Source: Alphaproteobacteria bacterium
Lineage (GTDB): Bacteria; Pseudomonadota; Alphaproteobacteria; SHVV01
Length of the DNA stretch: 64,000 bases
Direction: 5' to 3'
Assembly (NCBI GenBank): GCA_965261735.1
Contig: OZ253470.1
Coordinates: 1,188,129-1,252,128 of the forward strand
Shown: piece by piece, positions 20,722 to 54,735 of the stretch
Layout of the letters: the number at the start of each line of letters is the position of its first letter
Position numbering within the stretch: the stretch's first letter is position 1
Program-made: the position numbers and the translations under genes
Notes under the pieces: generated by a model
The model's input: the letters and a program-made list of their open reading frames with translations, nothing else
What the model was told of the DNA's origin: nothing
The model's database searches: none

Positions 20722-20724
20722 GGC

Positions 20725-22443: not shown

Positions 22444-22722
22444 TTTGCACCTCCGCAAGAGACCTGAGCCCGCGACCGCCAGCCCGGCCATCGCAGCGTC
22501 GCTCGGCCTCGCTGCCGCCTCGATTTAACACCTCTTGAGGACTTCGATCAACGCGAGCAGAACCGCGGCGAACTGGCTTGATCTCCGCCGGTTAGCCCAT
22601 TATCAACAAAAGGGCAAGGGAGCCCTTCGATTCTGTGGACATCCGGGCCGCGCGATCGGCGGGAGAGACGATCGCCGGAGTGAGTGTCTCAAGATCAACG
22701 CCAATTCGTGGGAGAGCGACCG

Positions 22723-24169: not shown

Positions 24170-25264
24170 ATGACGGACTACGCTTCCCTCCTGCCGATCA
24201 ATGTCATAACCGGGTTTCTCGGCAGCGGCAAAACCACCCTGCTGCGGGATTTGTTGCGATCGCCGCACCTACGCGACACCGCGGTGCTGATCAACGAGTT
24301 CGGCGAAGTAGGACTGGATCATCATCTGTTCCGCCACGTCTCCGAGAGCACGGTGCTGCTCGAGAACGGCTGCCTCTGTTGCGCCGTACGCGGCGATCTC
24401 AAGTTGGCCCTGCACGATCTGCTGTCGAAGCGCGACAAAGGAGAGCTGCCCCCCTTCCGGCGCGTCGCGATTGAGACCTCCGGCCTCGCCGACCCCGTGC
24501 CCATCGCCTACACAATCCTGGCCGAACCGGTCCTGCAACACCACTTCCGCCTCGGCAACGTGGTGACCACGATTGACGCGGTGAACGGGGCGGGTCAACT
24601 GGATCAGTTCGAGGAATCGGTGAAACAGGTCTCCGTCGCCGATCGCTTGGTGTTGACCAAGACGGACCTCTGCGGTGCGCCGGAGGTTGCGGTGCTTCGC
24701 GATATTTTGAGCCGCCTCAACAAGTCGGCGCCGGTGTTCGAGTCGGTCGCGGAGGGGATCGATCCCGAGCATCTGCTGGCGCAGGATATTTACAATCCGG
24801 GCGACTACCGGGAAGCAAGCCGATGGCTCGTCGACCGTAGCGAACACCCGGTAAGTGCGGAATGCGAGATTCTCCACCACCACCACGACCCGGGCATCTT
24901 CTCCTTTTGCCTGTGTTTCGATCAGCCCATGGATTGGACTGCCTTTGGCGTCTGGATGACGATGCTCCTCAACCGCCATGGCGAAAAAGTGCTCCGCATC
25001 AAGGGCATGCTCAACGTTGCCGGCCAAGCCGCTCCCGTGCTTATCAACGGGGTGCAGCACATCGTGCATCCACCAGCCCATCTCGACGACTGGCCCGACG
25101 CGGATCATCGCTCGCGCATCGTGTTCATCGTTCGTGACATGTCGCGCCGGCGCATCGAGGCTTCTCTGGCGGCCTTCAACGACCTCGCCAATCCGCGCGC
25201 CACCATGGACGCCGAAAACCGACCCGGGCCGACCACGGCCCTCGACTCTGCCAGCGTCGGTTAA
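24170..25264 (+). CDS. COG0523 / CobW-family G3E GTPase, a putative metal-insertion chaperone.
   Basis: Walker A GFLGSGKTTLL, the metal-binding GCLCCAVR (CxCC) motif, and the His-rich stretch ILHHHHDPG. Confidence 0.85.
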   Translation: MTDYASLLPINVITGFLGSGKTTLLRDLLRSPHLRDTAVLINEFGEVGLDHHLFRHVSESTVLLENGCLCCAVRGDLKLALHDLLSKRDKGELPPFRRVAIETSGLADPVPIAYTILAEPVLQHHFRLGNVVTTIDAVNGAGQLDQFEESVKQVSVADRLVLTKTDLCGAPEVAVLRDILSRLNKSAPVFESVAEGIDPEHLLAQDIYNPGDYREASRWLVDRSEHPVSAECEILHHHHDPGIFSFCLCFDQPMDWTAFGVWMTMLLNRHGEKVLRIKGMLNVAGQAAPVLINGVQHIVHPPAHLDDWPDADHRSRIVFIVRDMSRRRIEASLAAFNDLANPRATMDAENRPGPTTALDSASVG

Positions 25265-25914
25265 GGGGCCGAGTCGGACGAAGACACCCGCGGTGGTGGC
25301 CGGCGCGGACGCCAGCCGATCCTGAAAGCGCGCACCGCGTGGTGGAGCAGGAAAAACGCTATCGCGAGAATCACCAGCAAGATGATGGCGAGGAGCTTGC
25401 CGCCAAACCCCGCATCGATGATCGGACCACGGCTCATCAAGTGCTCGCTCAGCATCTCGACGGCTTGCAGAGTGGCGCCGCCAAAAAAGATCAAGGCTAT
25501 GAGAATGGCTATCTGTAGGGTATCGAAGACGAGCCCTTCGACCTCAAGATCAGTGGCGGCCCGGAAGATGTTTCTGCGGAAGGATTGCCAATGGGAGACC
25601 GCGTAGCCGATCACCCCGACGAGCGACGCGAACCAGAATATGACGTTGGAAAAATGGATGCGCGGAATACTTTGGGTCAAGTAATCTTCGAACGGCCGAT
25701 AAAAATAGAGGAAGATCAACAGTATGACGAGACCAACCAGGATGATCCAAAACCTCGGCCGCTGCCAACTGGTGCTGTCCTGTGCCATGATGAGCGGGGC
25801 CGCTCCGTCCCGGGGGTTCCAGTAGCTGCTTATCGTCTCGGCGCACCTCGGGCAAGCCAAAAAACGGCTCTCGCCAACCTCGACCTCAATGCACTGCGGT
25901 GAATCCGTTCTCAC
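25261..25914 (-). CDS. 4-TM membrane protein of unknown function, paralog A. The likely start is the internal Met at 25788.
   Basis: ...LYFYRPFEDYL...IFWFASLVGVIGYAVSHWQSFR...FGGATLQAVEMLSEHLM...IDAGFGGKL... is about 40% identical to 39509..39976. Confidence 0.55.
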   Translation of the reverse strand: MRTDSPQCIEVEVGESRFLACPRCAETISSYWNPRDGAAPLIMAQDSTSWQRPRFWIILVGLVILLIFLYFYRPFEDYLTQSIPRIHFSNVIFWFASLVGVIGYAVSHWQSFRRNIFRAATDLEVEGLVFDTLQIAILIALIFFGGATLQAVEMLSEHLMSRGPIIDAGFGGKLLAIILLVILAIAFFLLHHAVRAFRIGWRPRRPPPRVSSSDSAP

Positions 25915-26133
25915 GGAGCCCGCGCGGACCGAACGCTGGTGTGGCTACGGCGGAGCCGGCGGCGGCATCGACCCGCAACCTCGGGCTTAGCTTAGGCGCC
26001 GGCTTGACTCAGCCTTTCAGCTACCCAAAGAATGGGAGTTGGGCGGAAGGATGGGCGTAGTCCGAGGGAACGGGGACGGCATCTCGGTCGATTCCCGGCG
26101 CTGCCGCGTGAATTTTGGTAACAAGGAAAGGCC

Positions 26134-28197
26134 ATGAGCAGCCGCCTCGGCATTGATGTGGGTGGGACTTTCACCGATCTCTTGCTGTTCAACGAGAGTA
26201 GCGGCGAAATCCACCTGCTCAAGACGCCGTCCACGCCCGAAGACCAGTCGGTCGGCATTCTCAACGGCGTCGAGCGGCTGATCGCCCAATCGGGCATACC
26301 CGCGGCCGAGATTCAGACGGCACTCCACGGCACCACGGTATCGACAAACATCGTGCTCGAGGAAAAAGGCGCCAAAGTCGGCCTGCTGGTCACGGAAAAC
26401 TTCGAGCAGGTGCTGCATTTGGCGCGGTCGCAGACGCCGGGGCCGCTGGCCGGTTGGATCATCATGATCAAGCCGGATCCGCTCGCGGATCTGGAGTTGA
26501 CCCGTGGTGTCCCGGAACGCATCAACGCGCGCGGCGAAATCCTCAAGCCGCTCGATGAAGCCTACGTGCGCACCGCCATACCGGACCTCATAGAGGCAGG
26601 CGTGGAATCGATTACGGTATCATTACTCCATTCCTACGCCAACGCCGCGCACGAGGTACGGATCAAGGAGATCATCCAGGACCTGGGAATCGAGGTGCCG
26701 GTTTCGCTGTCCAGCGAAATTCTCCCGGAGTTTCGTGAATACGAGCGGACTCTGGTCACGGTGATGAACGCCTACGTGCGGCCCAGCATGCGCAGCTATC
26801 TGAGGAACTTCGAGGACAAGTTGCGCAGCATCCAGTTTTCGCCCCATGTGAACATCGTGCGCTCCGATGGCGGACTGATGAGCGTGGAGCGCGCCTCCGA
26901 GTCCCCCGTCTACACGATGTTGTCCGGGCCGGCGGGCGGGGTTTCGGGTGCCGCTTTTCTCGCCGCGCTGGCCGGGAGCCCCAATGCTCTCGGTTTCGAC
27001 ATGGGTGGCACCTCGACCGACGTTTCGCTGATCCAAGATGGCCAACCGATGATCTCGCGCCAGACCTCGCTCGGCTATTACCCACTGAAGGTGCCCTCCG
27101 TCGAGGTACACAGCGTCGGCGCAGGTGGCGGCTCCATCGCCCATGTGCCGATGACCGGCGCTCTGCGCGTCGGTCCCGAGAGCGCGGGCGCCGCGCCTGG
27201 CCCCGCCTGCTACGGTAGGGGCGGCGACCAGCCCACGGTGACGGACGCCAACGTGGTGCTCGGGCGCTTGCCGCCGAGCCTGCTCGGCGGCGACATGGCG
27301 CTGGACGTCAAGGCGGCCGAGGAAGCGGTGGCGAAGATCGGGCGCGCCCTTGGTCTCGACACCTACCAGGCGGCTCAGGGGATTCTCGATATCGTCAACG
27401 AGAACATGTTCGGGGCGCTGCGACTGGTATCGGTGCAGAAGGGTCTCGATCCGCGGGACTTCGCGCTCGTCGCCTTTGGCGGGGCGGGCCCCCTTCACGG
27501 CAATGCCATGGGCGCGCTCGCGCAGTGCTACCCGGTGATCATCCCCCCGACCCCTGGAGTGCTCTCGGCCCTAGGGTTTCTCTACTCGGACGTAAAGAAC
27601 GAGTTCGCCAAGACGTTTATCCGCAATCTCAACGAAGTGCATGCCGGCGATGTGACGGAAATCTTGACGCGGCTAGGCACTGAGGCGACAGCGTGGCTGC
27701 GCGAGGAAGGCATCGAGGAGCGAAGCCAGGAGCTGCGCTTCGAGGCCGACGTGCGGTATTTTCGCCAGGGCTACGAGATCTCCCTTACCGTGACCCCCAG
27801 CACGTTGGTCAATGGCGGAATCCAGGATATTGAGAATCGTTTCGGCGCCATCCACGAACGGCTGTATGGTTTCAAGTTGGATGCGCCGGTCGAGCTCGTG
27901 AACCTGCGCGCCGTCGGTACCGGCCGGGTGGTGAAGATCAAGTTCCCGAGCTTCGAGAAGCAAGGCAGCGATCCCTCCCCCGCCATGGTGGATCAACACC
28001 GGGTCTACTTCGACGGCAACTTTGTGTCGGCCAACGTTTACGATCGCAACCTGCTCGCCGCGGGCAACCGCATCTCGGGCCCAGCGGTGGTCACACAAAC
28101 GGATTCGACCACCCTCATCCACCCCGCGCACAGCGGAGAGGTGGACGCGTATCTGAACATCTTGATTTATCCGCAGGGCGCGAGTCCTTCGGCATGA
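26134..28197 (+). CDS. hyuA: Hydantoinase A / N-methylhydantoinase (ATP-hydrolysing) A subunit / oxoprolinase family, copy 1.
   Basis: 687 aa. N-terminal ASKHA fold GIDVGGTFTDLLLF, an AAGGRSGA-type motif region and a DMGGTSTD motif. RBS AAGGAAAGG. Confidence 0.9.
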   Translation: MSSRLGIDVGGTFTDLLLFNESSGEIHLLKTPSTPEDQSVGILNGVERLIAQSGIPAAEIQTALHGTTVSTNIVLEEKGAKVGLLVTENFEQVLHLARSQTPGPLAGWIIMIKPDPLADLELTRGVPERINARGEILKPLDEAYVRTAIPDLIEAGVESITVSLLHSYANAAHEVRIKEIIQDLGIEVPVSLSSEILPEFREYERTLVTVMNAYVRPSMRSYLRNFEDKLRSIQFSPHVNIVRSDGGLMSVERASESPVYTMLSGPAGGVSGAAFLAALAGSPNALGFDMGGTSTDVSLIQDGQPMISRQTSLGYYPLKVPSVEVHSVGAGGGSIAHVPMTGALRVGPESAGAAPGPACYGRGGDQPTVTDANVVLGRLPPSLLGGDMALDVKAAEEAVAKIGRALGLDTYQAAQGILDIVNENMFGALRLVSVQKGLDPRDFALVAFGGAGPLHGNAMGALAQCYPVIIPPTPGVLSALGFLYSDVKNEFAKTFIRNLNEVHAGDVTEILTRLGTEATAWLREEGIEERSQELRFEADVRYFRQGYEISLTVTPSTLVNGGIQDIENRFGAIHERLYGFKLDAPVELVNLRAVGTGRVVKIKFPSFEKQGSDPSPAMVDQHRVYFDGNFVSANVYDRNLLAAGNRISGPAVVTQTDSTTLIHPAHSGEVDAYLNILIYPQGASPSA

Positions 28198-28205
28198 GGT
28201 GAACC

Positions 28206-30497
28206 ATGACTGACCTGAACCCGCCGCGCAGATCGGTCTCGCTGGACGACTTGCTGAAGGCCAACAAGGCGCAGTTCGACAGTGTCTTCGCGGCCCAGAT
28301 GAGGGACACGGGCCTGGTGAGCGTGACCCATCGGCCGGCCACGGCAGAGGATCTTGTCTCGGCTAGCCTAGGGGTCCGGGCGGTCGTCGACGGCGACGAT
28401 AGTACGGCACTCCTCGACGGGCGGTTTGGCGAGGGTTGGTCATCCGAGGTCGTCGAACACAAGACCGAAGGCGGCTCGGTCACGGTGCTGTGCAAGCTCG
28501 TGGTGGACGGGGTTTCAAAAATGCAGTTCGGTGCGGCACGGATCAACGGCGATCAGGGTGCCGCTCTGCAAAGGGCGACCGACGAGGCGCTCAAGAAGTG
28601 TGCGGCCCTGTTCGGGCCGCGAGAGGGGCTGCCGGAGGCAGAGGCCGGAGGCCCCGCCGCCCGACCGCAAGAGGCGCCGGCCGCGGGAGCCCAGCCCGAT
28701 GCCGCCGTGCCCAGCCTCGCCGCCCCCACTAGCCGTGCGCTGGACACGATCACCCTGGATCTCATCGAAAACGCGCTGCGCAACGCCCGGCACGAGATGG
28801 ACGCCGTACTCTTCCGCTCCGCCATGTCACCCGTGATCCGCGAGCAACACGACGAGTTTCCCATGATCACCGACCCCAAGGGGCGGATGATCGTCGGCCA
28901 GTTCGGCTCCTACGTCGCCGAGATGCTGCGCGAGCAGAACATGCAGGTTGATCCGGGCGACGTCATTCTCAATAACGATCCCTTCAAATGCGGCGGCGCC
29001 ATCAGCCATATCAACGATTGGCTCGTGCTCGTGCCGATCTTTCACGGCAACGAACTTGTCGGCTTCAGCTCCATGTTCGGCCACATGATGGACGTCGGCG
29101 GCTGGGTGCCCGGCAGCATGCCGACCGCCGCCACGTCGATCTTCGGCGAGGGAATCCGCATCCCGCCGATCAAGATCTACGCGAAGGGCGAGATCAACAA
29201 GGCGGCGCTCGGCATCATCATGAACAACACGCGCACGCCCGAAATGAACTACAGCGACCTCATGGCTATCATCGCCGGCTGCCGTGCCGGCGAGAAGCGG
29301 GTGATCCAGATCTGCGACCGCTTCGGTAAGGACACCTACATTCAGGCGTGTGAGGCCCTGCTTGAGCGTACCAACCGCGCGATGCGGCAGCTCATCGTTC
29401 AGAACCTGCCCAATGAGCCTCAGTCGTTCGAAGACTACGTAGATGATGACGGCTGCGGCAACGGCCCCTTCAAGATGAAACTGACCGTGTGGCGCGAGGG
29501 CGACGAGGCCTTCTTCGATTGGACGGGGACCTCAGATCAGGCGCCGGGTCCGATCAATTTCTTCCTCAACGAGGGCATGTTCAAGATGTTCATCGGGGTC
29601 TACATGATCATGGTGTTCGACCCCCAGATTCTCTTCAACGACGGATTCTACGACCTCATTCACGTGACCCTACCCAAAGGGTCGCTCGTGCACCCGGAGT
29701 TCCCGGCAGCGCTGGGCTGCCGCACGCACGCCCTCGCCCGCCAGTTCGACGTCCTCGGCGGCGCGCTGAGTAAAAACGCGCCGGAAATGGCCACTGCCGC
29801 CGGCTATGGCTCAAGCCCTCACTTCCTGTACTCGGGCGTTGACGGCGATGGCCGCCCGTTCCAGCTCATGGAGATACTGTTTGGCGGGATTCCCGGCCGC
29901 CCGGTAGGCGACGGCATGGATGGCCACTCGTGGTGGCCGCTATTCGAGAATATTCCCACCGAATACCTCGAAACCTACTATCCGATGATCATCGAAAACT
30001 ACACCACGCTAGCCGACACCGGCGGCGCTGGGAGGCACCGCGGCGGCAACGGCGTCGAAAAGGTTTACTTGTTGTTGGAGAACGGCGAGATCTCCATCCA
30101 CGATGACCGCCATCTCACCCAGCCGTGGGGGATTCTCGGAGGACAACCGGGCGCTTGCTCGGAAAAATGGCTGGAGAAAGAGGACGGGTCCAGGGAGCCG
30201 TTGCCCTCGAAGGTGGACAACGTAAGAGTGCGCGGGGGCGACAGGATCATCTTCCGCACCGCCGGCGGCGGCGGCTGGGGCGACCCATTGGAACGCGAGC
30301 CGGCAAAGGTGCGCGGCGACGTGGTGCGCGGTCTCTTGACCGTGGGCGCCGCCCAGGAACGGTACGGCGTGGTCATCGGCAGCGTCGGGCTCACCATTGA
30401 CGACCGGGCGACCCAGGAGTTGCGCGAGAAGCTGAAAGGGAATCGAGGGACCCTCCCGGTGTTCGATTTTGGTGCGCAGCCATCGGGTCATGCATGA
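28206..30497 (+). CDS. hyuB: Hydantoinase B / oxoprolinase-family subunit, copy 1, with an unusual roughly 190-aa N-terminal extension: an amphipathic peptide, a GEGW (Rad52-like-signature) domain and a Pro/Ala-rich linker.
   Basis: The HyuB homology starts at about residue 190 (LDTITLDLIENALRNARHEMDAVLFRSAMSPVIREQHDEF...). The N-terminus is MTDLNPPRRSVSLDDLLKANKAQFDSVFAAQMRDTGL...LLDGRFGEGWSSEVVEHKTEGGSVTVLCKLVVDGVSKMQFGAARINGDQGAALQRATDEALKKCAALFGP. Confidence 0.85.
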   Translation: MTDLNPPRRSVSLDDLLKANKAQFDSVFAAQMRDTGLVSVTHRPATAEDLVSASLGVRAVVDGDDSTALLDGRFGEGWSSEVVEHKTEGGSVTVLCKLVVDGVSKMQFGAARINGDQGAALQRATDEALKKCAALFGPREGLPEAEAGGPAARPQEAPAAGAQPDAAVPSLAAPTSRALDTITLDLIENALRNARHEMDAVLFRSAMSPVIREQHDEFPMITDPKGRMIVGQFGSYVAEMLREQNMQVDPGDVILNNDPFKCGGAISHINDWLVLVPIFHGNELVGFSSMFGHMMDVGGWVPGSMPTAATSIFGEGIRIPPIKIYAKGEINKAALGIIMNNTRTPEMNYSDLMAIIAGCRAGEKRVIQICDRFGKDTYIQACEALLERTNRAMRQLIVQNLPNEPQSFEDYVDDDGCGNGPFKMKLTVWREGDEAFFDWTGTSDQAPGPINFFLNEGMFKMFIGVYMIMVFDPQILFNDGFYDLIHVTLPKGSLVHPEFPAALGCRTHALARQFDVLGGALSKNAPEMATAAGYGSSPHFLYSGVDGDGRPFQLMEILFGGIPGRPVGDGMDGHSWWPLFENIPTEYLETYYPMIIENYTTLADTGGAGRHRGGNGVEKVYLLLENGEISIHDDRHLTQPWGILGGQPGACSEKWLEKEDGSREPLPSKVDNVRVRGGDRIIFRTAGGGGWGDPLEREPAKVRGDVVRGLLTVGAAQERYGVVIGSVGLTIDDRATQELREKLKGNRGTLPVFDFGAQPSGHA

Positions 30498-30592
30498 GGC
30501 CGGCGCAAGGAACCATGCGTTAGACGGATAGGCGGCTACCTATTCCATCCCTGGAGGCAACGCCGACCCATCGCAACAGCGGGGGCTATACG

Positions 30593-33409
30593 ATGCTCGA
30601 CATAGCGATCCCAATCCTCATCTTCGCGATCATTGTCATCGCCATCCTGTATGTCGTCTCAATCTGGATTTACAAGCGTTCGCCCACCAACATGGCATTC
30701 ATCCGCACCGGTTTCCTGGGCACCAAGGTATGCCTGGGCCGGGGCGCTCTGGTGTTTCCGGTTTTCCACGAGGTCACTTGGGTTTCCCTGGAGACGATCA
30801 AACTCATCGTAAGCCGCGCCCGTGAGCAGGGCGTTCTCACAGCCGACAAGATCCGCATCGACGTCGGCGCCGAGCTCTACGCCCATGTCGGCCACACGCC
30901 CGAGGCCATTCTCACGGCGAGCCGGAGTTTGGGCGAGAAGACATTCGACGCCGAGAAGGTACGCAACCTGCTCGAGGCCAAGGTCGTCAGCGCGCTCAGG
31001 AGCTACGCGGCGACCAAGACCCTTAGCGAGCTGCACGAAAACCGGGACGCCTTTGCCCGCGAAATCAAAGCTAGTGTGACGGAGAGCTTTGAGGCCAATG
31101 GCCTCACGCTTGAGGAAGTGACGATCGTCACCATGGAGCAAACGCCAAAGGAGTACTTCAAGACCGACAACGTGTTCGACGCCGAGGGGCTCAAGATCAT
31201 CACGGAAATCACTTCCGATGCCCGTAGAGAGGTCCACGACACCGAGAAGCGCACGACCGTGTCCATCCGCCAGAAGGACCTGGACACGCAACTCGAGCTC
31301 CTCGAAATCGAACGGCAGGAGGCCGTCGCCCGGGCGGGCCAGGACAAGGCAGTATCCAACGAGCAGGCGCTTCAGCTCGGCCAAAAGCAGATCTACGTTC
31401 TCGACCAGCGCAAAGCCGTCGAGGAAAAGGAGATCGAGAACGAGAAAGCGCTGGAGCGCATGCGGACCGATCGCGATCTGATCATCACCGAAGAGGCGAA
31501 GAAGCGCGAGGCTTCCGAGATCCAAAAAGAGTTGGCACTAGAGCAGGAGCGCAAGGACCGGGAGATTGCGATTATCGCCAAGGCGAGGGAAGAAGAGCTG
31601 GCCAACATCGCACGCAATCTAGCTCTCGAGCAGGCTGAGAAAGATCGCCAAATCGCCTTGATCGCCAAGGCGAAGCAGGAGGAATTGGCCGATATCGAGC
31701 GAGCGCTGGCACGCGATCGGGCCGCGAAAAACAGCGAAATCGAGCTCATCGCCACGGATCAGGAACGCCAGCAGACTGAGATTCAGCGTGCCACGGCGGT
31801 TATGGCCGAGGAGGAGGCGGCACGCGATCGGCGCCATCAGGCTGGTGAGGAGGCCGCCATATCCATGCGCAGGCGTAGCCTCCAGACCCGCCTCAGCACG
31901 CTTGACCTGGACAAGGACGAGGCGTTCGCCGAAGCCCGCCAGGAGCAAGAGGTGTCCAACGAAAAGGCGCGCGTACTCAGCGAACAACAGCGCTTCATCC
32001 TCGAGCAGCGTTGGCAAGTCGAAGAAGAAGAGATCAACAAGGCGCGGGCGGTCGAGGCCGCCGAAATCCACAAGGAAGCCGGAATTATCGAAACCATGAA
32101 AACACGCGAGGCCGCCGAGGTGCGCCGTGCCCTGGCCCGCGAGCAGGAGGAAAGGGACCGTGAGATCGCGCTGGTCGCCAAGTCGCAGGAGCTCGAACAG
32201 GCGGAAATCCGCCGCAAGTTGGCGGGCGAACAGGAAGATCGCGACCGCCAGCTCGCCCTTGTCGCCAAGGAGGAAGAGCTGCGACGTGCCGAGGTGAGGC
32301 AGGCCCTGGCGGTCGAGCTCGAGGAACGAGCCCGCGAGATCACGCTCATTGGCAAGGAACAGGAGCGCGAAATAGCGGATATCGGTCGCTTTCTGGCGCG
32401 CGAAAAGGAGGAACGCGACCGCGAGATCGCGTTGGCCGAAAAAACTCGGCAGCTGGAGGAAGCGGAGATCAAGCGCCTGGAGGCCTCCGCAAAGAGGGAG
32501 CGGGCCCAGCACAACGTGGAATCGGTGAGCCTCCTCGCCGACGCCGAGCGCACCAAGAACATCGAACGCGTCGAAGCCGAAAGGTTGGCTGAAAGCCGTC
32601 GGATCGACGAGGAAAATAAGGCCCAGATCAACCGCATGCACATGCTGGCTCAAGCCGAGACGCGGAAGCTGTCGGCTGAGCAGGAATCCGATGCGACGCT
32701 CATCAGAGCTCGCGCTACGAGCGAGGCCCAGAAGATTACCGCCGAGGGGATCGAGAAGGAGGCGGGGGCCACAGGCCGGGCCGAAATGGAGATCGAAGCG
32801 CTGCGTGCCGCCAACGCCCGGCGCATGCTCGAGGCCGAGGCTTCAGGCCTTGAAGCCAAGGCGGTCGCGCTGAAGAAGTACAACGAGTCCGGGGCCTTCC
32901 TGGAATTGGCAAAGATGCGTATCGAGGCCGAGCGCGACATCCACATCGATCAGGCCAAGGCCATGGGGAGCGCCCTGCAGGGTGCGCAAATCCGCATGTA
33001 TGGCGGCGAGAATGGCACCGTCGATACCATTCGCAGCATGTTTACCTCTGGGTTCGCGCTCGGCGAGGTTCTGGAGGGGGTGGCGCAGTCCTTACCCGAG
33101 GGCTTGCGCGGGCGATTCAAGGACAACGGCCTCAGGGGTCTTTTCGGCAAGCCGTACGGGACCAGCGATTTCAAGCATTCCATCGAGGACTTGAGCAAGC
33201 TGGTCCAGAAGAGCTTGCGTACGCGCAAAGACAAGGAGATCCCCTTCGCGGAAGCCGTGACCATTTTGCAGGAAAAGGCCGGCGGGGATGACGGCCAGGC
33301 GAAAGCGGTCGGCCTTCTCAAGGAGATGAACGAACAGGGGCAATTCGACGACCTTTCCTTTGACAAGGTGTGGGCGCTTATAAGAGCCGCGGCAAAGTCG
33401 GCGGACTGA
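30593..33409 (+). CDS. Flotillin-like SPFH/band-7 protein (YqiK/FloT type), unusually long at 938 aa with an expanded Glu/Ala/Arg-rich repeat region.
   Basis: N-terminal TM (ILIFAIIVIAILYVVSIW), an SPFH domain (FIRTGFLGTKVCLGRGALVFPVFHEVTWVSLETIKL...), about 500 aa of roughly 28-residue coiled-coil repeats (REQEERDREIALVAKSQELEQAEIRRKLAGEQEDRDRQLALVAKEEELRRAEV...), and a flotillin C-terminal tail. Confidence 0.85.
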   Translation: MLDIAIPILIFAIIVIAILYVVSIWIYKRSPTNMAFIRTGFLGTKVCLGRGALVFPVFHEVTWVSLETIKLIVSRAREQGVLTADKIRIDVGAELYAHVGHTPEAILTASRSLGEKTFDAEKVRNLLEAKVVSALRSYAATKTLSELHENRDAFAREIKASVTESFEANGLTLEEVTIVTMEQTPKEYFKTDNVFDAEGLKIITEITSDARREVHDTEKRTTVSIRQKDLDTQLELLEIERQEAVARAGQDKAVSNEQALQLGQKQIYVLDQRKAVEEKEIENEKALERMRTDRDLIITEEAKKREASEIQKELALEQERKDREIAIIAKAREEELANIARNLALEQAEKDRQIALIAKAKQEELADIERALARDRAAKNSEIELIATDQERQQTEIQRATAVMAEEEAARDRRHQAGEEAAISMRRRSLQTRLSTLDLDKDEAFAEARQEQEVSNEKARVLSEQQRFILEQRWQVEEEEINKARAVEAAEIHKEAGIIETMKTREAAEVRRALAREQEERDREIALVAKSQELEQAEIRRKLAGEQEDRDRQLALVAKEEELRRAEVRQALAVELEERAREITLIGKEQEREIADIGRFLAREKEERDREIALAEKTRQLEEAEIKRLEASAKRERAQHNVESVSLLADAERTKNIERVEAERLAESRRIDEENKAQINRMHMLAQAETRKLSAEQESDATLIRARATSEAQKITAEGIEKEAGATGRAEMEIEALRAANARRMLEAEASGLEAKAVALKKYNESGAFLELAKMRIEAERDIHIDQAKAMGSALQGAQIRMYGGENGTVDTIRSMFTSGFALGEVLEGVAQSLPEGLRGRFKDNGLRGLFGKPYGTSDFKHSIEDLSKLVQKSLRTRKDKEIPFAEAVTILQEKAGGDDGQAKAVGLLKEMNEQGQFDDLSFDKVWALIRAAAKSAD

Positions 33410-33429
33410 GCCGGCGCTCGGGACAGGGC

Positions 33430-34512
33430 ATGACGCAGCACGACGTCGTTCTGAAAGGCGTGGACAAGACCTTCGTGGGCGACGTTCGTGCCGTGATCGA
33501 CTTCAATGCCGAGATCGAGCACGGCGAGTTCGTAGCCATGCTCGGGCCGAGCGGCTGCGGCAAGACCACCATGCTGCGCCTGATCGGCGGGCTCGAAGAG
33601 GTGACCGCGGGACGCATCTACATCTCCGAGCAAGACGTGACGGACCTGCCGCCGTCGCAGCGCGACACCGCGATGATGTTTCAGAGCTTCGCGCTCTTCC
33701 CGCACCGCACGGTGCTGCAGAATGTTGAGTTCAGTCTCAAGACCAAGGGGCTGCCGAAAGACGAGCGCGCGCGCCACGTGTGGGAGATGCTCGAATTGGT
33801 GAGCCTCGCCGAGCTCGCCAACCGCTATCCCCGTGATCTGAGCGGAGGGCAACAGCAGCGCGTCGCCCTGGGCAGGGCTTTGATCGCCAGACCGACCGTA
33901 CTTCTACTCGATGAGCCGCTCGGCTCTCTCGACTACAGCCTGCGCCAAGCCATGATGGTCGAGCTCAAGAAGATTCAGCGCGAGCTGGGAATCACCTTCA
34001 TCATGGTCACCCACTCCCAGCAGGAAGCGTTGTCCATGGCGGACAAGGTGATCGTAATGAGCGATGCCGTGATTCAGCAGATCGGCACGTCGCGGGAAAT
34101 CTACGAGCACCCGCGAACCAAGTTCGTGGCCGAATTCGTCGGCAACAACAACTTGTTCCAGGGGACCGTCCGATCGCGCAGCGGTTCCATCGTGTTCGTG
34201 GAAACCAATGGCCACTTGTTCTACGTGAGAATCCCCGAGCACATGCGCCAGGTGCCGATCGGCAAGGAAGCGTACTTCTCGGTGCGAGCCGACCGCATGC
34301 ACACGGGCGAACAACCGGCCATGGCCAATCGGATCGAAGGCGAGTACGTCACCACCGAATTCATGGGCTCGCTGGAGACCGACGTTTTCGAGATCGCGCC
34401 CAGGATTTTCGTCCACGTCGAGCAGCACCGTAGCGCGTCGGATCGCGACTACAACATGGGGGACCGCGAAACCATCTGCTGGGCGGCCGATGCGGGGGTG
34501 CTGCTCGACTAG
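33430..34512 (+). CDS. ABC transporter ATP-binding protein, PotA/spermidine-putrescine-type importer ATPase with a C-terminal TOBE domain.
   Basis: Walker A GPSGCGKTT, Q-loop, signature LSGGQQQRVALGRAL, Walker B LLLDEPL and H-loop MVTHSQ. The ORF-track start at 33370 overlaps the flotillin gene, so the ATG at 33430 is preferred. Confidence 0.85.
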   Translation: MTQHDVVLKGVDKTFVGDVRAVIDFNAEIEHGEFVAMLGPSGCGKTTMLRLIGGLEEVTAGRIYISEQDVTDLPPSQRDTAMMFQSFALFPHRTVLQNVEFSLKTKGLPKDERARHVWEMLELVSLAELANRYPRDLSGGQQQRVALGRALIARPTVLLLDEPLGSLDYSLRQAMMVELKKIQRELGITFIMVTHSQQEALSMADKVIVMSDAVIQQIGTSREIYEHPRTKFVAEFVGNNNLFQGTVRSRSGSIVFVETNGHLFYVRIPEHMRQVPIGKEAYFSVRADRMHTGEQPAMANRIEGEYVTTEFMGSLETDVFEIAPRIFVHVEQHRSASDRDYNMGDRETICWAADAGVLLD

Positions 34513-34524
34513 GAACCTCGATCG

Positions 34525-35352
34525 CTATCGCGAGCGGCGATAGAGGATGGTGTAGATCGCGACGAACAGAGCGATCATGGACAACGAAAAAAGCGTCGAG
34601 GCGGTGCCGAGCGCAAACAGCGTCGGCCGGATGCGCTGGGCCGTGGCGGCGTTGATGTCGAGCGGCAGTGTGTTGTACTGGCCCGAGAGCAGAGTCGTGC
34701 GCGCGAACTCGTCGTAGGAAAGCGTAAAGCCAAAGAGAGCAGCCGCCACGATGCCAGGCATAATCAGCGGCAGCGTCACCTCCCTGAACACGGTCCATTC
34801 GCTGGCGCCCATGTCGCGGGCCGCCTCCTCGACACTCTCATCGAAGCGGTTGAAAACCGCCATCATGACCAGGAACCCGAACGGCAGCGTCCACACCACG
34901 TGGACGCCCAAACCCGAGGACCACCACGCCGGTGCAATCGCCACCTGCTTCAGCAGGGTCGCGAGCCCGAGACTGAGCAGGATCCCCGGCACCATGAGGC
35001 CCGCCAAGATCGTGTAGAACAAGAGGCCCGAGCCTGGGAACGGTTTGCGAAATGCCATCGCCAACATGGTGGAGAACAGGGCGGTGACGACCATCACGAT
35101 CAGCGCCAGAATCAACGAGCGCAGCAACGCCCCCTGCATGTCGCCGACCACCGAGGGCTCAATCAGCTTGTTCCACCAGTACAGGCTGACGCCGCGCATG
35201 GGAAAGCTCACGCCCCCTCGGCGCCCCTGGAACGAAAGGATGAACATGGCGATCATCGGCCCATAGATGAAGAGGAGGAACAGGATGTAGTAGGCGCTGA
35301 AACCGGTCTTGATCCAGGCCTTCTTTCTCCTTTCCGGGGTCGAGCGAGCCAC
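34525..35352 (-). CDS. ABC transporter permease (PotC/PotI-like).
   Basis: 275 aa, 6 TM, binding-protein-dependent transport EAA-loop context. Confidence 0.8.
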   Translation of the reverse strand: MARSTPERRKKAWIKTGFSAYYILFLLFIYGPMIAMFILSFQGRRGGVSFPMRGVSLYWWNKLIEPSVVGDMQGALLRSLILALIVMVVTALFSTMLAMAFRKPFPGSGLLFYTILAGLMVPGILLSLGLATLLKQVAIAPAWWSSGLGVHVVWTLPFGFLVMMAVFNRFDESVEEAARDMGASEWTVFREVTLPLIMPGIVAAALFGFTLSYDEFARTTLLSGQYNTLPLDINAATAQRIRPTLFALGTASTLFSLSMIALFVAIYTILYRRSR

Positions 35353-35353
35353 C

Positions 35354-36343
35354 TCAAAGCTCCTTGCGAATGTCGACCAGCCTCAGGATGATGACCACGC
35401 CGATCATCATGGCGAGCATCAGCATGAGGGCGTTTACCGCGGCGAAGGGATAGTTCGCTATACCGTAATAGTTCAGGATCACCGTCCCCGCTGTGCTGGT
35501 TTTTCCGCCGTACACCACAACCGCGGTCGCGAACTCCCCCATGATCAGCACGAAGATGAAGATCATTCCGATGGCCACCCCCGGGAGTGAGAGCGGGCCG
35601 ATGATCTCGCGGAAAATCTGGAACGGTTTGGCGCCCATATCGCGCGCCGCCTCGAGGATCGTCTTTTCGATTTTCGCCAGCGAGAAAAAGATGGGTCCGA
35701 CGCACAGCACAACGTAGAGCTGCACCAACGCCATCGTGTAACTGAACTGCGAATACAGCAGGAACTCGACGGGCTTGTCGATGATGCCCATGTCGAGCAA
35801 GGCCCTGTTGAGCAGGCCGCGCCGCCCCAGCATGGGCAGCCAGGCCACGGCGCGGATCAGGTAGCTGGTCCAGAACGGCACCATGCAAAACAGAAACAGC
35901 GTGATCTGCCACTTGAAGCTCTTCACCTGCATGGCGAGGAAATAGGCGATCGGGTATCCAAACAGCAGACAGAAGAGCATCACGACAATGGTGAATTTGA
36001 AAGTCGTCCAGAGAGTCCGGACAAAGATGCCTGGGGTCAGAAACCCAACGGAGGAGGGATCGAGGAATCCCTCGACGGTGAAGTAGTCCGCGTAGTGGCG
36101 GAGGGTCAGATCGGGCTCCATGCCGTGGCCCGTGGACTTCCAAAAGCTGAAAACAACGATGCTGGCCAAGGGCACAACCAGGAACAGCAGCAGCCAGACG
36201 ACGGCGGGCGTAATCAGCCAGCCCACGGGGAACCCAGCCTGTCGCCAGGTTTTCGCGGCCCGGGCCTCTGTTTCCGGCGCCGTCGGCTGGCTGCCGATCA
36301 GCCCTGAGTGGTGCGCATGCTCGGCTTGCTGCATACCAGTCAA
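35354..36343 (-). CDS. ABC transporter permease (PotB/PotH-like).
   Basis: 329 aa polytopic membrane protein, 1 bp from the downstream permease gene. Confidence 0.8.
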   Translation of the reverse strand: MTGMQQAEHAHHSGLIGSQPTAPETEARAAKTWRQAGFPVGWLITPAVVWLLLFLVVPLASIVVFSFWKSTGHGMEPDLTLRHYADYFTVEGFLDPSSVGFLTPGIFVRTLWTTFKFTIVVMLFCLLFGYPIAYFLAMQVKSFKWQITLFLFCMVPFWTSYLIRAVAWLPMLGRRGLLNRALLDMGIIDKPVEFLLYSQFSYTMALVQLYVVLCVGPIFFSLAKIEKTILEAARDMGAKPFQIFREIIGPLSLPGVAIGMIFIFVLIMGEFATAVVVYGGKTSTAGTVILNYYGIANYPFAAVNALMLMLAMMIGVVIILRLVDIRKEL

Positions 36344-36512
36344 GATTCAAAAGGCACGGAAGGACTAGGACCGGGCAAACCGGTGGGATTTGCCCGGTCC
36401 TTGGGGAGACGGCAGATCCCTGGGGACGCCACCGGTTCTCTAGGCGGGCGCGGCCGAAGCCGCCCGCACCCGCCACGACTACCGGGCCATCGGTCCGGCA
36501 ACAAACATCGGA

Positions 36513-37817: not shown

Positions 37818-38032
37818 CGATTCTCTCCTCCCGTTGACAACGTGGGTTCCTGTAGAGACGCCCGTTGAAGCTTGAATAAATCCTAGGGAAGCCGCCTCCA
37901 AGAGTCCATCCAAACATCATCGCCGGCGCCAGCAGCGCAGCCGTCAAAGCCTTTGCCTCGCCGCGATAGCCGCGCGCATACTGGCCGCCGGTCGAGCGCT
38001 AGATCGAGGCCGAGACTGCCCGGGAGGATGTC

Positions 38033-39508: not shown

Positions 39509-39976
39509 TCAGGGTTGCTGCGTGGCGGGACGGATGATCTTAAGCAGCCAAAAAATGATGCAAAACACGCCGGTCAGGATCACCAGCGCGGCGACGGCGC
39601 CAAGGCGCTCGCCGAACCCCGCATCGAGGGCGTACTCCTGCCGCAGAAGATGGACGCAGAGGATTTGAACCGCCTGCAGTGTCGCGCCGCCACTCAGTAG
39701 GATCGCGACGAAGGTGGAGCCCCGTAGCGAACTCAGCACCATGGATTCGATGCTGCGCTGCTGCACGATGTGGACGCGGTAGGCGTGCCAGTGATAGGTA
39801 CAAAACCCGATGATGCCGATGATCAACGCGACCCAGAAGATCGCATTCTCGAACCTTATTCCATAGACGACCAGCTTGAACAAGTCCTCAAAGGGCTCGT
39901 AAAAATAGAGAAACATCAAGACAACAATGAAAAGCAGGAAGCCCACGAGCGTCCAAAACCATTGCCACCCAGTCAT
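39509..39976 (-). CDS. 4-TM membrane protein of unknown function, paralog B.
   Basis: MTGWQWFWTLVGFLLFIVVLMFLYFYEPFEDLF...LLSGGATLQAVQILCVHLL...LDAGFGERL. Convergent with hydA at a 10-nt gap. Confidence 0.55.
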   Translation of the reverse strand: MTGWQWFWTLVGFLLFIVVLMFLYFYEPFEDLFKLVVYGIRFENAIFWVALIIGIIGFCTYHWHAYRVHIVQQRSIESMVLSSLRGSTFVAILLSGGATLQAVQILCVHLLRQEYALDAGFGERLGAVAALVILTGVFCIIFWLLKIIRPATQQP

Positions 39977-40125
39977 TGGCCCACCAGCTCGTGGTTCTTC
40001 AGGGTAGGGTACGGGTCAAAGGGCAATAAAAGCTCCCACAGCCTTATATCCGATTGCTCTCGCCGAGGGCAAGCCCCGCCTCGACGACTCTCAGGCTCTA
40101 TTCGCGCGCGCCCGGCGGGGTCCAC

Positions 40126-43545: not shown

Positions 43546-43557
43546 CGCCGGGCCCCG

Positions 43558-48586: not shown

Positions 48587-48622
48587 GAAACTCGCGCGAC
48601 CATAATCCGGGGCGCCGCGCTG

Positions 48623-49335: not shown

Positions 49336-49436
49336 TGGCGCGAGTTTGCGGCCCCAGCGGAGCCGGGGCAAGCCGGAAATCGGGATCGCGCCCGCCTTGC
49401 GTCACCGATACCGCGCATTAGATGTTAGAATGAGTC

Positions 49437-54705: not shown

Positions 54706-54735
54706 GCGCCGCGTAGGATCGAAGAGGGCGGGCGC

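Follow-up and report, generated by a model that had tools for sequence, protein, structure and literature searches.

Why should a flotillin-like gene lie between the genes of a hydantoinase-type enzyme and those of an ABC importer? The locus was examined in a 64,000-nucleotide stretch of alphaproteobacterial contig OZ253470.1 (the window). A sequence-only reading of it had proposed two roles for the encoded SPFH protein, either a membrane organiser for the adjacent transporter or the scaffold of an enzyme assembly.

Identity, domains and fold of the long SPFH protein

The open reading frame begins with an ATG and spans 30593..33409 on the + strand, encoding 938 residues as originally called, and M1 is invariant in a 20-orthologue alignment (A1). 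Band_7/SPFH (PF01145) is the sole Pfam match of the protein (aa 45–190, 30725..31162, + strand), with 60.3 bits against a cutoff of 23.6, and Foldseek aligned this domain to the SPFH domains of stomatin and flotillin (TM-score 0.7–0.86, normalised to the target). A predicted N-terminal transmembrane helix (aa 2–29, 30596..30679, + strand), drawn from the AF2 model and the sequence, carries K28 and R29 at its end; both N-terminal elements expected of a flotillin are retained. By the positive-inside rule, the protein beyond this helix would face the cytoplasm. Glu (139), Ala (131) and Arg (91) are the most frequent of the 938 residues.

Over aa 1–369 the protein shares 35% identity with E. coli YqiK (E = 2e-58), and profile–profile alignment with YqiK-like proteins (hhalign) spanned aa 6–797 with a probability of 100% (E = 1e-80). 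About 300 residues (aa ~300–605) have no YqiK counterpart in this alignment, in agreement with the earlier estimate that the coiled-coil region is roughly doubled relative to YqiK-type flotillins. The helical region is highly charged, and its measured hydrophobic periodicity was not significant. AF2, hhalign and alignment A1 further delimited a C-terminal helical bundle (aa 809–936, 33017..33400, + strand; pLDDT 76–87 across aa 861–930), which has no counterpart in YqiK-type flotillins, the hhalign alignment stopping at aa 797. Many residues between aa 777 and 849 are invariant among orthologues.

The top Foldseek matches of the whole protein were the flotillin cage chains 9bq2_A/B, followed by prohibitin, stomatin, vault (MVP chains) and HflK/C. 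The AF2 model contains three helices of 203, 198 and 149 residues, with breaks that coincide with the module boundaries described below. The full-length model is of low confidence (pLDDT 63.9, pTM 0.25), so that the arrangement of its three helices is tentative, which weighs against a scaffold. To our knowledge, all SPFH proteins with a solved structure form large rings or cages. By analogy, the present protein probably also builds such an assembly, with the long helices as its wall.

The fold matches include HflK/C–FtsH structures, and a role in quality control, in which the cage would regulate a protease or the turnover of membrane-associated proteins as in HflK/C–FtsH or stomatin–NfeD, corresponds to the best-documented prokaryotic SPFH mechanism (PMC2636767). 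Nevertheless, this role is highly improbable here: the sequence affinity is to the flotillin/YqiK branch and not to HflK/C, the predicted cytoplasmic orientation differs from that of HflK/C, no NfeD partner gene was found beside the SPFH gene, and no protease gene was found to be conserved in its neighbourhood.

Duplicated module and unit-wise length variation

BLOSUM autocorrelation of the protein peaked at lags 29 (value 2.27) and 58, correcting the period of about 28 residues suggested at first to 29. Moreover, what had been described as a single repeat array proved to be two, each within one copy of a duplicated module of ~195 residues. Internal alignment and the AF2 model placed module A at aa 226–420 (31268..31852, + strand), forming most of model helix 234–436, and its duplicate, module A', at aa 426–617 (31868..32443, + strand), inside model helix 442–639. 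Smith–Waterman comparison of the two segments scored 367, against 110 ± 12 (maximum 150) for 200 shuffles. Because of this score and the autocorrelation peaks, the repeats were judged to be well above chance. The DNA of the two modules is dissimilar (best blastn match 50 nt at 80%), and the duplication is therefore old.

Autocorrelation and unit comparison resolved array 1 (31508..31768, + strand) into three good 29-residue units (aa 306–392) and then a degenerate one, with 10–17 of 29 residues identical pairwise. Array 2 (32105..32452, + strand), for which alignment A1 was also used, contains four good units (aa 505–620) and then a degenerate one, with 12–19 of 29 residues in common. The repeat motif quoted beforehand does occur in the protein, for example as ERDREIALVAKSQELEQAEIRRKLAGEQED.

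Long SPFH orthologues range from 851 to 1023 residues, and their lengths cluster at 851, ~910, 938, 965, 994 and 1023, in steps of whole 29-residue units. Most of this variation falls in array 2, as whole-unit indels at A1 columns ~530–650, and one orthologue (P0100) has exactly one unit fewer in array 1. The suggestion that the array is a slippage hotspot at the DNA level fails for the window's gene, in which TRF returned 0 rows at a minimum score of 30, no DNA-level tandem repeat was detected, the units share 54–67% DNA identity and no exact direct repeat exceeds 13 nt. It holds for the family, since the gammaproteobacterial orthologues in L028 and L084 carry 87-bp tandem repeats at 89–94% identity.

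A length of 938 residues is the norm within a tight, isolated clade. Among 1.84 billion representative proteins, the long family falls into one cluster at 50% identity, all of its members are at least ~58% identical, and the nearest flotillins outside it show 29–40% identity and 420–745 residues. The loci come from Alpha-, Beta- and Gammaproteobacteria and SAR324. In the model that we favour, the extra length would stem from the ancient duplication of a ~195-residue helical module composed of 29-residue units, making the putative wall-forming region ~300 residues longer than that of ordinary bacterial flotillins. Individual lineages would then adjust the length as entire units are added or removed, one unit corresponding to about 4.35 nm of helix.

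The SPFH gene is a fixed member of a conserved gene cluster

In almost all of ~100 related loci, from uncultured bacteria, the SPFH gene lies between a tagged hydantoinase-type enzyme and a transporter ATPase. Upstream in the window are hyuA (26134..28197, + strand), for subunit A of an ATP-dependent enzyme of the hydantoinase/oxoprolinase family, and hyuB (28206..30497, + strand), for its B subunit. Orthologues of similar length are common, yet in 76 of 80 loci hyuB immediately precedes the SPFH gene in the same orientation, so the proposed link to hyu genes stands and is much tighter than was first supposed; contig ends account for at least two of the four loci without it. hyuA is present upstream in 68 of 80, the shortfall being mostly due to contig ends.

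Downstream, the gene of a 360-residue PotA/UgpC-like ABC-transporter ATPase (33430..34512, + strand; Pfam ABC_tran and TOBE_2) begins 20 nt beyond the stop codon of the SPFH gene. Of 75 eligible loci, 73 have its orthologue downstream in the same orientation, at 69–81% identity. The initial placement of the SPFH gene beside an ABC importer was borne out for this ATPase; the genes for the permease and the binding protein are read in the opposite direction. A divergent gene upstream of hyuA (g25261, 25261..25788, − strand; mechanical ORF reaching 25914), recognised from sequence and conservation, encodes a membrane protein of ~175 residues with about four hydrophobic segments. It is found in 63 loci with position and orientation unchanged, is called as 167–175 residues in L082, L083 and L084, and has no Pfam or NCBIfam family match.

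The hyuB–SPFH spacer (30498..30592, + strand) measures 95 bp, as first reported, with the hyuB stop at 30497 and the SPFH start at 30593, and carries a Shine–Dalgarno-like GGGGG 6–10 nt before the ATG. Across loci, this spacer is usually 60–130 bp, and a GGGTG/GGAGG-like motif precedes the start in most. No terminator-like site was found on the + strand between hyuB and the SPFH gene. The sole + strand sigma-70-like promoter match in 25200–34700 lies upstream of hyuA (26004..26033), and with one match found against 1.7 expected by chance, a consensus match alone is weak evidence. Taken together, hyuA, hyuB, the SPFH gene and the ATPase gene are probably co-transcribed as one unit. The long SPFH gene is a fixed member of this unit and does not encode a free-standing housekeeping flotillin.

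Conserved order could also stem from common ancestry and from horizontal transfer of the block, the protein being a general membrane-organising or stress flotillin that travels with a catabolic island. Horizontal spread is suggested by the occurrence of one tight cluster (at least ~58% identity) over four bacterial groups, IS1595-family copies lie on both sides of the cluster in the window, and the phenotypes of bacterial flotillin mutants, in the parts of the literature available, are generally weak or pleiotropic. Gene order at 58–74% protein identity normally decays unless selected. The outer cluster genes are kept less often (30–51 loci), and rearrangements therefore occur round an unchanged core, whereas the hyuA–hyuB–SPFH–ATPase order is intact at 58–74% identity. 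Moreover, the SPFH gene is inside the unit, where its neighbours are tens of bases away and no terminator-like site intervenes, and the absence of NfeD indicates that the island has not simply acquired an ordinary flotillin cassette. We consider an uncoupled passenger improbable.

The ATPase raises a further alternative, in which the SPFH protein would organise or regulate the ABC importer only, by corralling the permease–ATPase complex in a membrane patch or by gating its activity, and the HyuB extension would have a separate job such as enzyme oligomerisation. The 20-nt spacing and the retention of the ATPase fit this proposal, as does L027, in which the SPFH gene and ATPase are kept and no hyuAB is found within 10 kb upstream, a locus that weighs against a scaffold. 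Known SPFH clients, as far as the available portions of the literature go, are mostly membrane proteins (FtsH for HflK/C, aquaporin 1 for stomatin). Permease and binding-protein genes are near the SPFH gene in 33–40 loci, but are kept nearby less often than hyuAB. In addition, the hyuB linkage is equally tight, and in L084 the SPFH gene and the ATPase are ~2.6 kb apart, with other genes in between, but hyuB still adjoins the SPFH gene. The restriction of a HyuB peptide to SPFH-adjacent copies (see below) would also be left unexplained. A purely transporter-directed role is on balance unlikely. Roles as transporter organiser and enzyme scaffold are not separable by synteny, because the ATPase is conserved about as tightly as hyuB.

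HyuB carries a conserved N-terminal extension

HyuA matches Pfam Hydant_A_N, Hydantoinase_A and Hydant_A_C, and its closest solved relative is the N-methylhydantoinase 7hk5 (aa 3–678, E = 1.8e-136). HyuB (763 residues) matches Hydantoinase_B from aa 180, after an N-terminal extension of ~178 residues, and aligns with N-methylhydantoinase over aa 167–742 (E = 5.1e-77). Solved HyuB relatives align from aa 167 or later only, and none has a counterpart of the peptide, Rad52-like domain or Pro/Ala tether that make up the extension. With 524 and 240 bits, HyuAB does not reach the cutoffs of the NCBIfam caprolactamase equivalog models (1000), and a cyclic amide or hydantoin is its putative substrate.

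The extension opens with a conserved, acidic, amphipathic peptide (aa ~10–35, SLDDLLKANKAQFDSVFAAQM; 28233..28310, + strand), predicted to be helical (AF2 helix 13–35). It is found in 70 of 71 SPFH-adjacent HyuB proteins and in 0 of 3 non-adjacent paralogues, a negative set so tiny that it weighs against a scaffold. The co-occurrence also runs the other way: among metagenome loci retrieved by the peptide pattern alone, all 18 that are long enough contain a long SPFH gene. Shared descent of one ancestral operon may be the sole cause, and the loci are non-independent samples because all members are at least ~58% identical.

The second element is a Rad52-like domain (aa ~66–135, 28401..28610, + strand) of three strands and one helix, followed by a Pro/Ala-rich linker to aa ~178. 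Its Rad52_Rad22 Pfam match (20.3 bits) equals the gathering score exactly, AF2 confidence is high over aa 71–130 (pLDDT 88–94), and human RAD52 rings account for 15 of the top 16 Foldseek matches, yeast Mgm101 being the remaining one. The literature searched contained no mention of Rad52 together with hydantoinase. The domain occurs in 54 of 71 SPFH-adjacent HyuB proteins. Two observations weigh against a scaffold: HyuB2 has a Rad52-like domain without an adjacent SPFH gene, and HyuB tether length does not rise with SPFH length (Spearman rho −0.36).

The N-terminal tags that the sequence-only reading took to be shared among the enzymes do exist. A peroxiredoxin at the cluster edge starts with the HyuB leading peptide in the window's lineage. 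The tagged form is from one lineage only, which weighs against a scaffold, and nearly all of the other matches listed are ordinary 160-residue proteins with the catalytic domain only.

In bacterial microcompartments and encapsulins, cargo is targeted by short conserved terminal peptides. The short peptide and flexible linker of HyuB resemble these by analogy, and a second enzyme bears the same peptide. On this basis, the SPFH protein might form a sealed, membrane-capped cage, modelled on the flotillin cage or a half-vault as opposed to an open scaffold, with HyuAB tethered inside and the importer feeding in substrate as in an enzyme nanocompartment. The very long modelled helices would give a large lumen, the flotillin cage wall reportedly has no holes and is probably impervious even to small molecules (PMC11260169), and vault shells, whose MVP chains are among the fold matches, house the specific enzyme PARP4 (9bw6; PMC12280208). 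However, ATP would have to enter and product to leave, and no pore or exchanger is evident; closure and an enclosed enzyme both lack structural support, the SPFH model is unable to show an oligomer, and the tagged peroxiredoxin is from a single lineage. A closed chamber thus seems a doubtful prospect.

A proposed scaffold coupling HyuAB to the importer

The most likely explanation, to which we assign a probability of roughly 0.45, is that the long SPFH protein is a dedicated scaffold coupling HyuAB to the importer. This YqiK-type flotillin would be attached to the inner membrane through a single N-terminal helix, would otherwise lie in the cytoplasm, and would keep the ATP-dependent ring-opening enzyme at the membrane patch of the matching ABC importer, where imported cyclic amide or hydantoin would be cleaved at its point of entry. 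HyuB would be recruited through its extension, in which the acidic amphipathic peptide and the flexible Pro/Ala tether are in most cases accompanied by a Rad52-like (ring-forming) domain; HyuB and the SPFH protein would then be in physical contact.

Comparison with known systems

E. coli YqiK and B. subtilis FloT/YuaG, prokaryotic flotillin-like proteins reportedly assigned by Hinderhofer and colleagues in 2009 to the SPFH2 group, share the N-terminal anchor, SPFH domain and Glu/Ala-rich helical region. In contrast, they are shorter (553 residues for YqiK and 477 positions for the FloT model, on which the long protein scores 18 bits against a 700-bit cutoff) and lack the ~300 extra helical residues of the duplicated, 29-residue-repeat module, and the C-terminal bundle is unrelated. 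Their operon partner is NfeD (YqiJ/YuaF), whereas the long SPFH gene lies within a hyuAB–ABC ATPase unit without NfeD. HflK/C–FtsH and stomatin–NfeD have the SPFH fold and long-helix architecture in common with it; HflK/C, a hetero-oligomer, faces the periplasm and has a protease as its client, unlike the long protein, whose neighbourhood has no conserved protease or NfeD gene.

The eukaryotic flotillin-1/2 cage (9bq2; Fu and MacKinnon, 2024, PMC11260169) is the best structural match, over about 380 aligned columns with just 15–19% sequence identity. Its highly charged, non-classical wall is built of a 186-residue helix (PMC11260169), compared with modelled helices of 203, 198 and 149 residues here. 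Flotillin-1/2 has a lipidated hairpin anchor in place of a transmembrane helix, and the long protein would be a homo-oligomer at best because only one gene is present. Among cages of the SPFH fold class, the MVP/PARP4 vault offers the closest precedent for an enzyme client, but vaults are soluble, eukaryotic and made of MVP repeat domains, and the HyuB extension has no homology to the vault-shell-binding region of PARP4. The likeness is offered as a functional analogy only, and vault membership is not claimed. HyuAB itself shares the full Pfam Hydantoinase_A/Hydantoinase_B set with N-methylhydantoinase (7hk5), the hydantoinase/5-oxoprolinase pair 6yra and the acetone/acetophenone carboxylase family, the solved hydantoinase relatives being without the peptide, Rad52-like domain and tether.

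A precedent for client-dedicated bacterial flotillins found by synteny is provided by the rhodopsin clusters of SAR11, HIMB59 and Pseudothioglobus, in which, according to the available part of the report, a flotillin gene is invariably beside and co-transcribed with the rhodopsin gene (PMC10308929). That part makes no mention of an expanded repeat region, and the partner there is a membrane protein, whereas the partners of the long SPFH gene are a soluble ATP-dependent enzyme and a transporter ATPase. Here too, the near-constant gene order suggests that a bacterial flotillin serves one specific client.

The SPFH gene and its product

The sequence-only reading had proposed a 938-aa flotillin-like reading frame 95 bp downstream of hyuB, and both points were borne out: an ATG-started ORF encoding 938 residues occupies 30593..33409 (+), and hyuB terminates at 30497, which leaves a spacer of 95 bp. 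The start methionine is invariant across an alignment of 20 orthologues. Band_7/SPFH (PF01145) is the sole Pfam match in the product, covering aa 45-190 with 60.3 bits against a cutoff of 23.6. Sequence and structural model agree on a hydrophobic N-terminal helix (aa 2-29) followed by Lys-Arg, which by the positive-inside rule would place most of the protein on the cytoplasmic side.

The AlphaFold2 monomer model, built from 60 sequences, reached a pLDDT of 63.9 and a pTM of 0.25, with only moderate confidence for the SPFH-domain part and a helix packing that is not fixed at this confidence. The model contains the transmembrane helix, the SPFH domain and three very long helices (234-436, 442-639 and 648-796) whose breaks fall exactly at the boundaries of a duplicated module, and its C-terminal helical bundle is predicted better than the rest. 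A Foldseek search of the PDB returned 54 matches at E <= 1e-3, and all 50 listed were SPFH-family or vault chains. The best were the flotillin-1/2 cage chains of 9bq2 (E 5.5e-7, ~380 columns), followed by prohibitin, stomatin, major vault protein and HflK/C, and isolated SPFH domains were matched at a target-normalised TM-score of 0.7-0.86. As every solved member of the SPFH family forms a high-order membrane ring or cage, this protein would be expected to assemble in the same manner. Searching the PDB with the single sequence gave no match, and the profile search gave nothing but a chance match to peptidase T (E 0.08). Moreover, Fourier analysis of helix hydrophobicity (3.5 vs ~3.63 residues per turn) revealed no peak above shuffled controls.

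Repeat arrays and length variation

The coiled-coil region had been read as one array of roughly 28-residue repeats. Repeats are indeed present, but the BLOSUM autocorrelation peaks at lag 29, both in aa 290-400 (2.27) and in aa 500-660 (1.63, with 1.26 at lag 58), so the period is 29 residues. In addition, a stronger second signal at lag 200 indicated two arrays rather than one, with three good units in array 1 (aa 306-392) and four in array 2 (aa 505-620). Each array lies inside one copy of a duplicated module of ~195 residues, and the two copies (aa 226-420 and 426-617) align with a Smith-Waterman score of 367, compared with 110 +/- 12 and a maximum of 150 for shuffled sequences. The DNA of the modules is unalignable, the 29-residue units of the window gene are 54-67% identical at DNA level, the longest exact direct repeat measures 13 nt and TRF returned no rows, that is, no DNA-level tandem repeat in this gene, which together indicate that the duplication is old.

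The suggestion that the array is a hotspot for slippage and length variation was therefore rejected for the window copy, yet it holds for the family. Orthologue lengths cluster at 851, ~910, 938, 965, 994 and 1023 aa, and the steps between them correspond to complete units of 29 residues, with array 2 the main site of change and array 1 affected once. Together with repeat units well above chance, these whole-unit differences identify a tandem-repeat protein with evolving copy number. The 964-aa gammaproteobacterial orthologue of locus L028 has an 87-bp unit repeated 2.5-2.9 times at 89-94% identity (11616-11865), and the 1023-aa gammaproteobacterial form of locus L084 carries 4.4 copies at 92% identity (11625-12009). 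Repeats this nearly identical suggest that units were gained recently in the gammaproteobacterial lineage and that unit turnover is still ongoing in some lineages. Such gains and losses supply natural variants with which the effect of helix length on SPFH cage size could be studied.

The protein had also been considered unusually long. A length of 938 aa is normal within the clade, since the best 120 of 1672 relatives from a word-indexed search all measure 851-1023 aa; against the next relatives (420-745 aa) the claim stands. An exhaustive search of 1.84 billion representatives placed the whole long clade in one 50%-identity cluster plus fragments. Beyond this cluster, identity drops abruptly to 29-40%, and the relatives match just the N-terminal 250-470 residues. 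This sudden fall indicates a sharply delimited clade without intermediates.

A conserved gene neighbourhood

Scanning one genome per species yielded 80 loci from Alpha-, Beta- and Gammaproteobacteria and SAR324. All 80 belong to metagenome-assembled genomes (from the marine water column, soil and sediment), with no cultured isolate among them, which is probably why the system has been overlooked. The sequence-only reading had named orthologues of similar length that are common and never linked to hyu genes as evidence against its proposal. Such orthologues are common, but in 76 of the 80 loci the gene immediately upstream, on the same strand, is hyuB, typically with a gap of 60-130 bp. Two of the remaining four (L015 and L020) are contig ends. 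In L038, hyuB probably lies just past the 1.8-kb flank, because the related L040 has a 1.66-kb insertion at this position. In L027 (OZ241870.1), the SPFH gene and the ABC ATPase gene are kept with a UDG-like gene inserted between them, and hyuAB is absent within 10 kb upstream. L026 (OZ242023.1), a related gammaproteobacterial genome, keeps hyuB without a recognisable hyuA upstream; everywhere else hyuA is present where the flank is long enough.

Downstream, 73 of 75 eligible loci have an orthologous ABC ATPase gene (69-81% identity) in the same orientation, which starts within 400 nt in 64 of them. The SPFH protein might organise the transporter only, a rival explanation on which this linkage and the absence of hyuAB upstream in L027 bear on one side and the constancy of hyuB on the other. 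A role in protease regulation has also been weighed, but no protease occurs among the conserved neighbours. In the window, the importer genes are split: the ATPase gene (33430-34512, +) lies with hyuAB and the SPFH gene, and two permeases and a binding protein with a twin-arginine signal (20.2 bits) are encoded convergently at 34525-37913 (-). A gene that runs divergently from hyuA in 63 loci, g25261, encodes a small membrane protein with about four hydrophobic segments and no soluble beta domain. The outer genes, namely isochorismatase-like, polysaccharide-deacetylase-like, cobW, the two permeases, the binding protein and dihydropyrimidinase/D-hydantoinase, are less constant (30-51 loci each). 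The core order is constant and its surroundings change.

No terminator-like site was found in the hyuB-SPFH spacer. The single promoter-like match on the + strand of the unit lies upstream of hyuA, which is weak evidence, and a Shine-Dalgarno-like motif precedes the SPFH start codon in most loci. PADLOC, run with anti-phage defence in view, matched none of the SPFH protein, HyuA, HyuB, g25261 and the stand-alone Rad52-like protein described below.

The HyuB extension and its leading peptide

HyuA and HyuB belong to the ATP-dependent hydantoinase/oxoprolinase family, with matches to Pfam Hydantoinase_A (E 3e-95) and Hydantoinase_B (E 1e-149) and the PDB relatives 7hk5 and 6yra; the cutoffs of the caprolactamase and acetophenone carboxylase equivalog models were not reached. 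The Hydantoinase_B domain of the 763-aa HyuB begins at residue 180, and the solved relatives (N-methylhydantoinase 7hk5, the 6yra pair and acetone/acetophenone carboxylases) align from residue 167 onward only. The extension ahead of this point consists of a leading peptide, SLDDLLKANKAQFDSVFAAQM, predicted to be helical, a Rad52-like domain of ~70 residues and a Pro/Ala-rich linker.

N-terminal tags shared among the catabolic enzymes had been noticed from the sequence alone, and they were confirmed. The leading peptide occurs in 70 of the 71 SPFH-adjacent HyuB genes having enough upstream sequence and in none of three non-adjacent HyuB paralogues; it is also found on a peroxiredoxin, and HyuB2, the second HyuB of the window, shares the Rad52-like domain. 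Gammaproteobacterial SPFH-adjacent HyuB proteins keep the peptide and lack the Rad52-like domain. Furthermore, a metagenome scan by the peptide pattern alone, built from eight alpha-type sequences, recovered 28 loci, 18 of them with at least 3.2 kb downstream. All 18 encode a Hydantoinase_B domain after the peptide and a long SPFH gene ~2.3 kb downstream, a reciprocal result that covers only the SLDDLL[KQR]AN variant. The peptide core is net negative, with three Asp and two Lys, so it would more likely make a protein-protein contact than bind the membrane directly.

The main caveat is that co-occurrence of peptide and SPFH gene is by itself no proof of contact, since all members descend from one operon and are phylogenetically non-independent. 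This bears on a further, unlikely rival, in which the SPFH gene would be a passenger without coupling to the enzyme; the unchanged core amid varying outer genes stands on the other side.

The tagged peroxiredoxin gene of the window (20698-21186, -) encodes an N-terminal peptide, SLDELFKASKEQFDNIFTTQM, as in HyuB1 (HMM 43.7 bits), and has lost its 3' end beside an IS1595-family transposase gene. In a sister strain the protein is intact at 202 aa (locus L083, 10001-10609). Nearly all other peroxiredoxin matches listed measure 160 aa and match in the catalytic domain only. A widespread tagged peroxiredoxin family was rejected, the tag being found among the matches listed only in the identical sister-strain protein. 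The HyuB N-terminal module was also considered as a separate adaptor and dismissed; the 44 short database matches are HyuB frameshift fragments from error-prone assemblies.

Rad52-like domains in the cluster

The N-terminal domain of HyuB falls into the Rad52/Rad22 superfamily by both sequence and fold. Pfam Rad52_Rad22 (PF04098) matches at 20.3 bits, exactly the gathering score, and the AlphaFold2 model shows three strands and a helix with pLDDT 88-94 for aa 71-130. The top 16 Foldseek matches comprised 15 human RAD52 rings and one yeast Mgm101 (E 3.5e-5 to 1.4e-3). The domain is present in 54 of 71 SPFH-adjacent HyuB genes. In the window it occurs three times: in the N-terminal part of HyuB1 with the leading peptide (28206-28739, +), in that of HyuB2 without the peptide (43261-43545, -), and as a stand-alone protein of ~175 aa at the cluster edge (21194-21721, -). 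The stand-alone form is conserved in this position in at least 24 loci, the flank length setting a limit on the count. The literature search found no paper linking Rad52 with a hydantoinase, and a Rad52-fold domain on a metabolic enzyme appears to have no earlier report in the literature searched.

The surrounding cluster and mobile elements

The cluster also encodes a dihydropyrimidinase/D-hydantoinase (38033-39499, +; NCBIfam equivalog, 600 bits vs a 393-bit cutoff), an isochorismatase-family amidase (21733-22491, -), a polysaccharide-deacetylase/PuuE-like protein (22684-23796, +) and a CobW-type GTPase (24170-25264, +). This gene content suggests that the pathway breaks down a cyclic ureide, hydantoin or lactam. 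In L084, the genome of the 1023-aa form, an M20 peptidase gene and a three-gene HcnABC/sarcosine-oxidase-like oxidoreductase set stand ahead of the cluster (1-4527), which hints that the ring-opened product may be an N-carbamoyl or N-alkyl amino acid.

A second pair, hyuA2/hyuB2, lies at 41305-45636 (-), with HyuB2 31% identical to HyuB1. It is accompanied at 39509-41187 (-) by g39509, 34% identical to g25261, and g40126, a 353-aa polytopic membrane protein; no SPFH gene was found in the neighbourhood of this pair in the window.

Two full 1070-bp copies of an IS1595-family element form an inverted pair at 99.9% identity (19652-20721 and 52799-53868), and partial copies lie at 46899-47399 (501 bp) and 49474-49698 (225 bp). 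Because inverted copies bracket the hyu/SPFH cluster (~20.7-46.9 kb), it may be mobilisable as a composite unit. To the right of the IS copies (47400-64000) the G+C content rises to 0.684, from 0.61-0.63 in the cluster and further left.

A candidate scaffold for uptake and cleavage

In the best-supported reading, the protein would act as a dedicated, probably co-transcribed flotillin-type scaffold for a module of uptake and cleavage. By means of the HyuB extension, HyuAB would be held on a ring or cage of SPFH protein at the cytoplasmic face, next to the ABC importer, whose ATPase gene belongs to the same unit. The length of the HyuB tether shows no positive relation to SPFH length (rho -0.36). 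Linker length thus does not track SPFH length and gives no support to a tether matched to cage height, and this speaks against a simple tethering picture.

A more elaborate and improbable arrangement is a sealed nanocompartment, in which a closed, membrane-capped SPFH cage on the cytoplasmic face would enclose HyuAB loaded through the HyuB peptide, with the ABC importer filling the same volume, the Rad52-like domain arranging HyuAB as a ring and the Pro/Ala tether suspending it. If true, bacteria would possess an enzyme nanocompartment built from a flotillin, its targeting peptide portable and its wall height dictated by how many 29-residue units are present. Such a structure would add a third kind of prokaryotic protein compartment to microcompartments and encapsulins, and would give a Rad52-fold domain a role unrelated to DNA.

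The scaffold reading bears on a wider problem. Mutants of bacterial flotillins usually show weak, pleiotropic phenotypes and their clients have been found piecemeal, so the question of the clients has long stayed open. Here, genomics alone supplies a specific candidate client set, which makes the question directly testable. In ~100 loci from four bacterial groups, one flotillin clade almost always lies between an ATP-dependent hydantoinase-type enzyme and a transporter ATPase. The clade appears to have lost its canonical NfeD partner, and comparison of sequences indicates that the enzyme has acquired a unique leading peptide as well as a Rad52-like domain. The system is of value because it offers a client assignment for a bacterial flotillin that is unusually clean and testable, and because of the Rad52-fold fusion.

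Comparison with known SPFH systems

Sequence domain and fold, an SPFH domain with a long helix, both place the protein in the SPFH (Band 7) superfamily. E. coli YqiK shares 35% identity with the N-terminal ~370 residues (E 2e-58), profile-profile comparison (hhalign) with 25 YqiK-like proteins gave a probability of 100% (E 1e-80), and the nearest representatives outside the family are all YqiK-like in length and matched region. The sequence tie is thus to YqiK/FloT rather than to HflK/C or stomatin, and sequence and model together indicate that the protein belongs to, and would work like, the flotillin/YqiK branch. Database names of family members are generic ('SPFH domain-containing protein', 'uncharacterized membrane protein YqiK'), and the literature search found no paper pairing SPFH with a hydantoinase.

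The protein departs from the canonical prokaryotic flotillin cassette in three features, namely the NfeD partner, size and architecture, and the FloT equivalog score. The canonical operon partner is an NfeD homologue (NfeD2: YqiJ/YuaF) (PMC2636767), whereas tblastn with E. coli YqiJ, of low sensitivity because NfeD2 is poorly conserved, found none in the window and the 80 loci. Typical prokaryotic flotillins have ~420-745 aa and one helical region, in contrast to 938 aa, ~300 inserted helical residues and a module duplication here. In the hhalign alignment, YqiK-type flotillins map onto residues ~6-320 and ~606-797 and have no counterpart to the ~300 intervening helix residues or the C-terminal bundle (aa ~800-938). 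The FloT equivalog (NF058507) scored 18.2 bits (E 0.0011) against a curated cutoff of 700. In the solved flotillin cage, 44 helices of 186 residues each run in parallel to form the barrel-shaped wall (PMC11260169).

HflK/HflC are paired paralogues with FtsH as client, whereas a single SPFH gene is present here, with neither a second paralogue nor a protease among the conserved neighbours; the cytoplasmic orientation suggested by the positive-inside rule also contrasts with an HflK/HflC-type placement. Vaults housing PARP4 are a precedent by analogy only. The closest functional precedent is provided by the rhodopsin-dedicated flotillins of SAR11 and relatives (PMC10308929).
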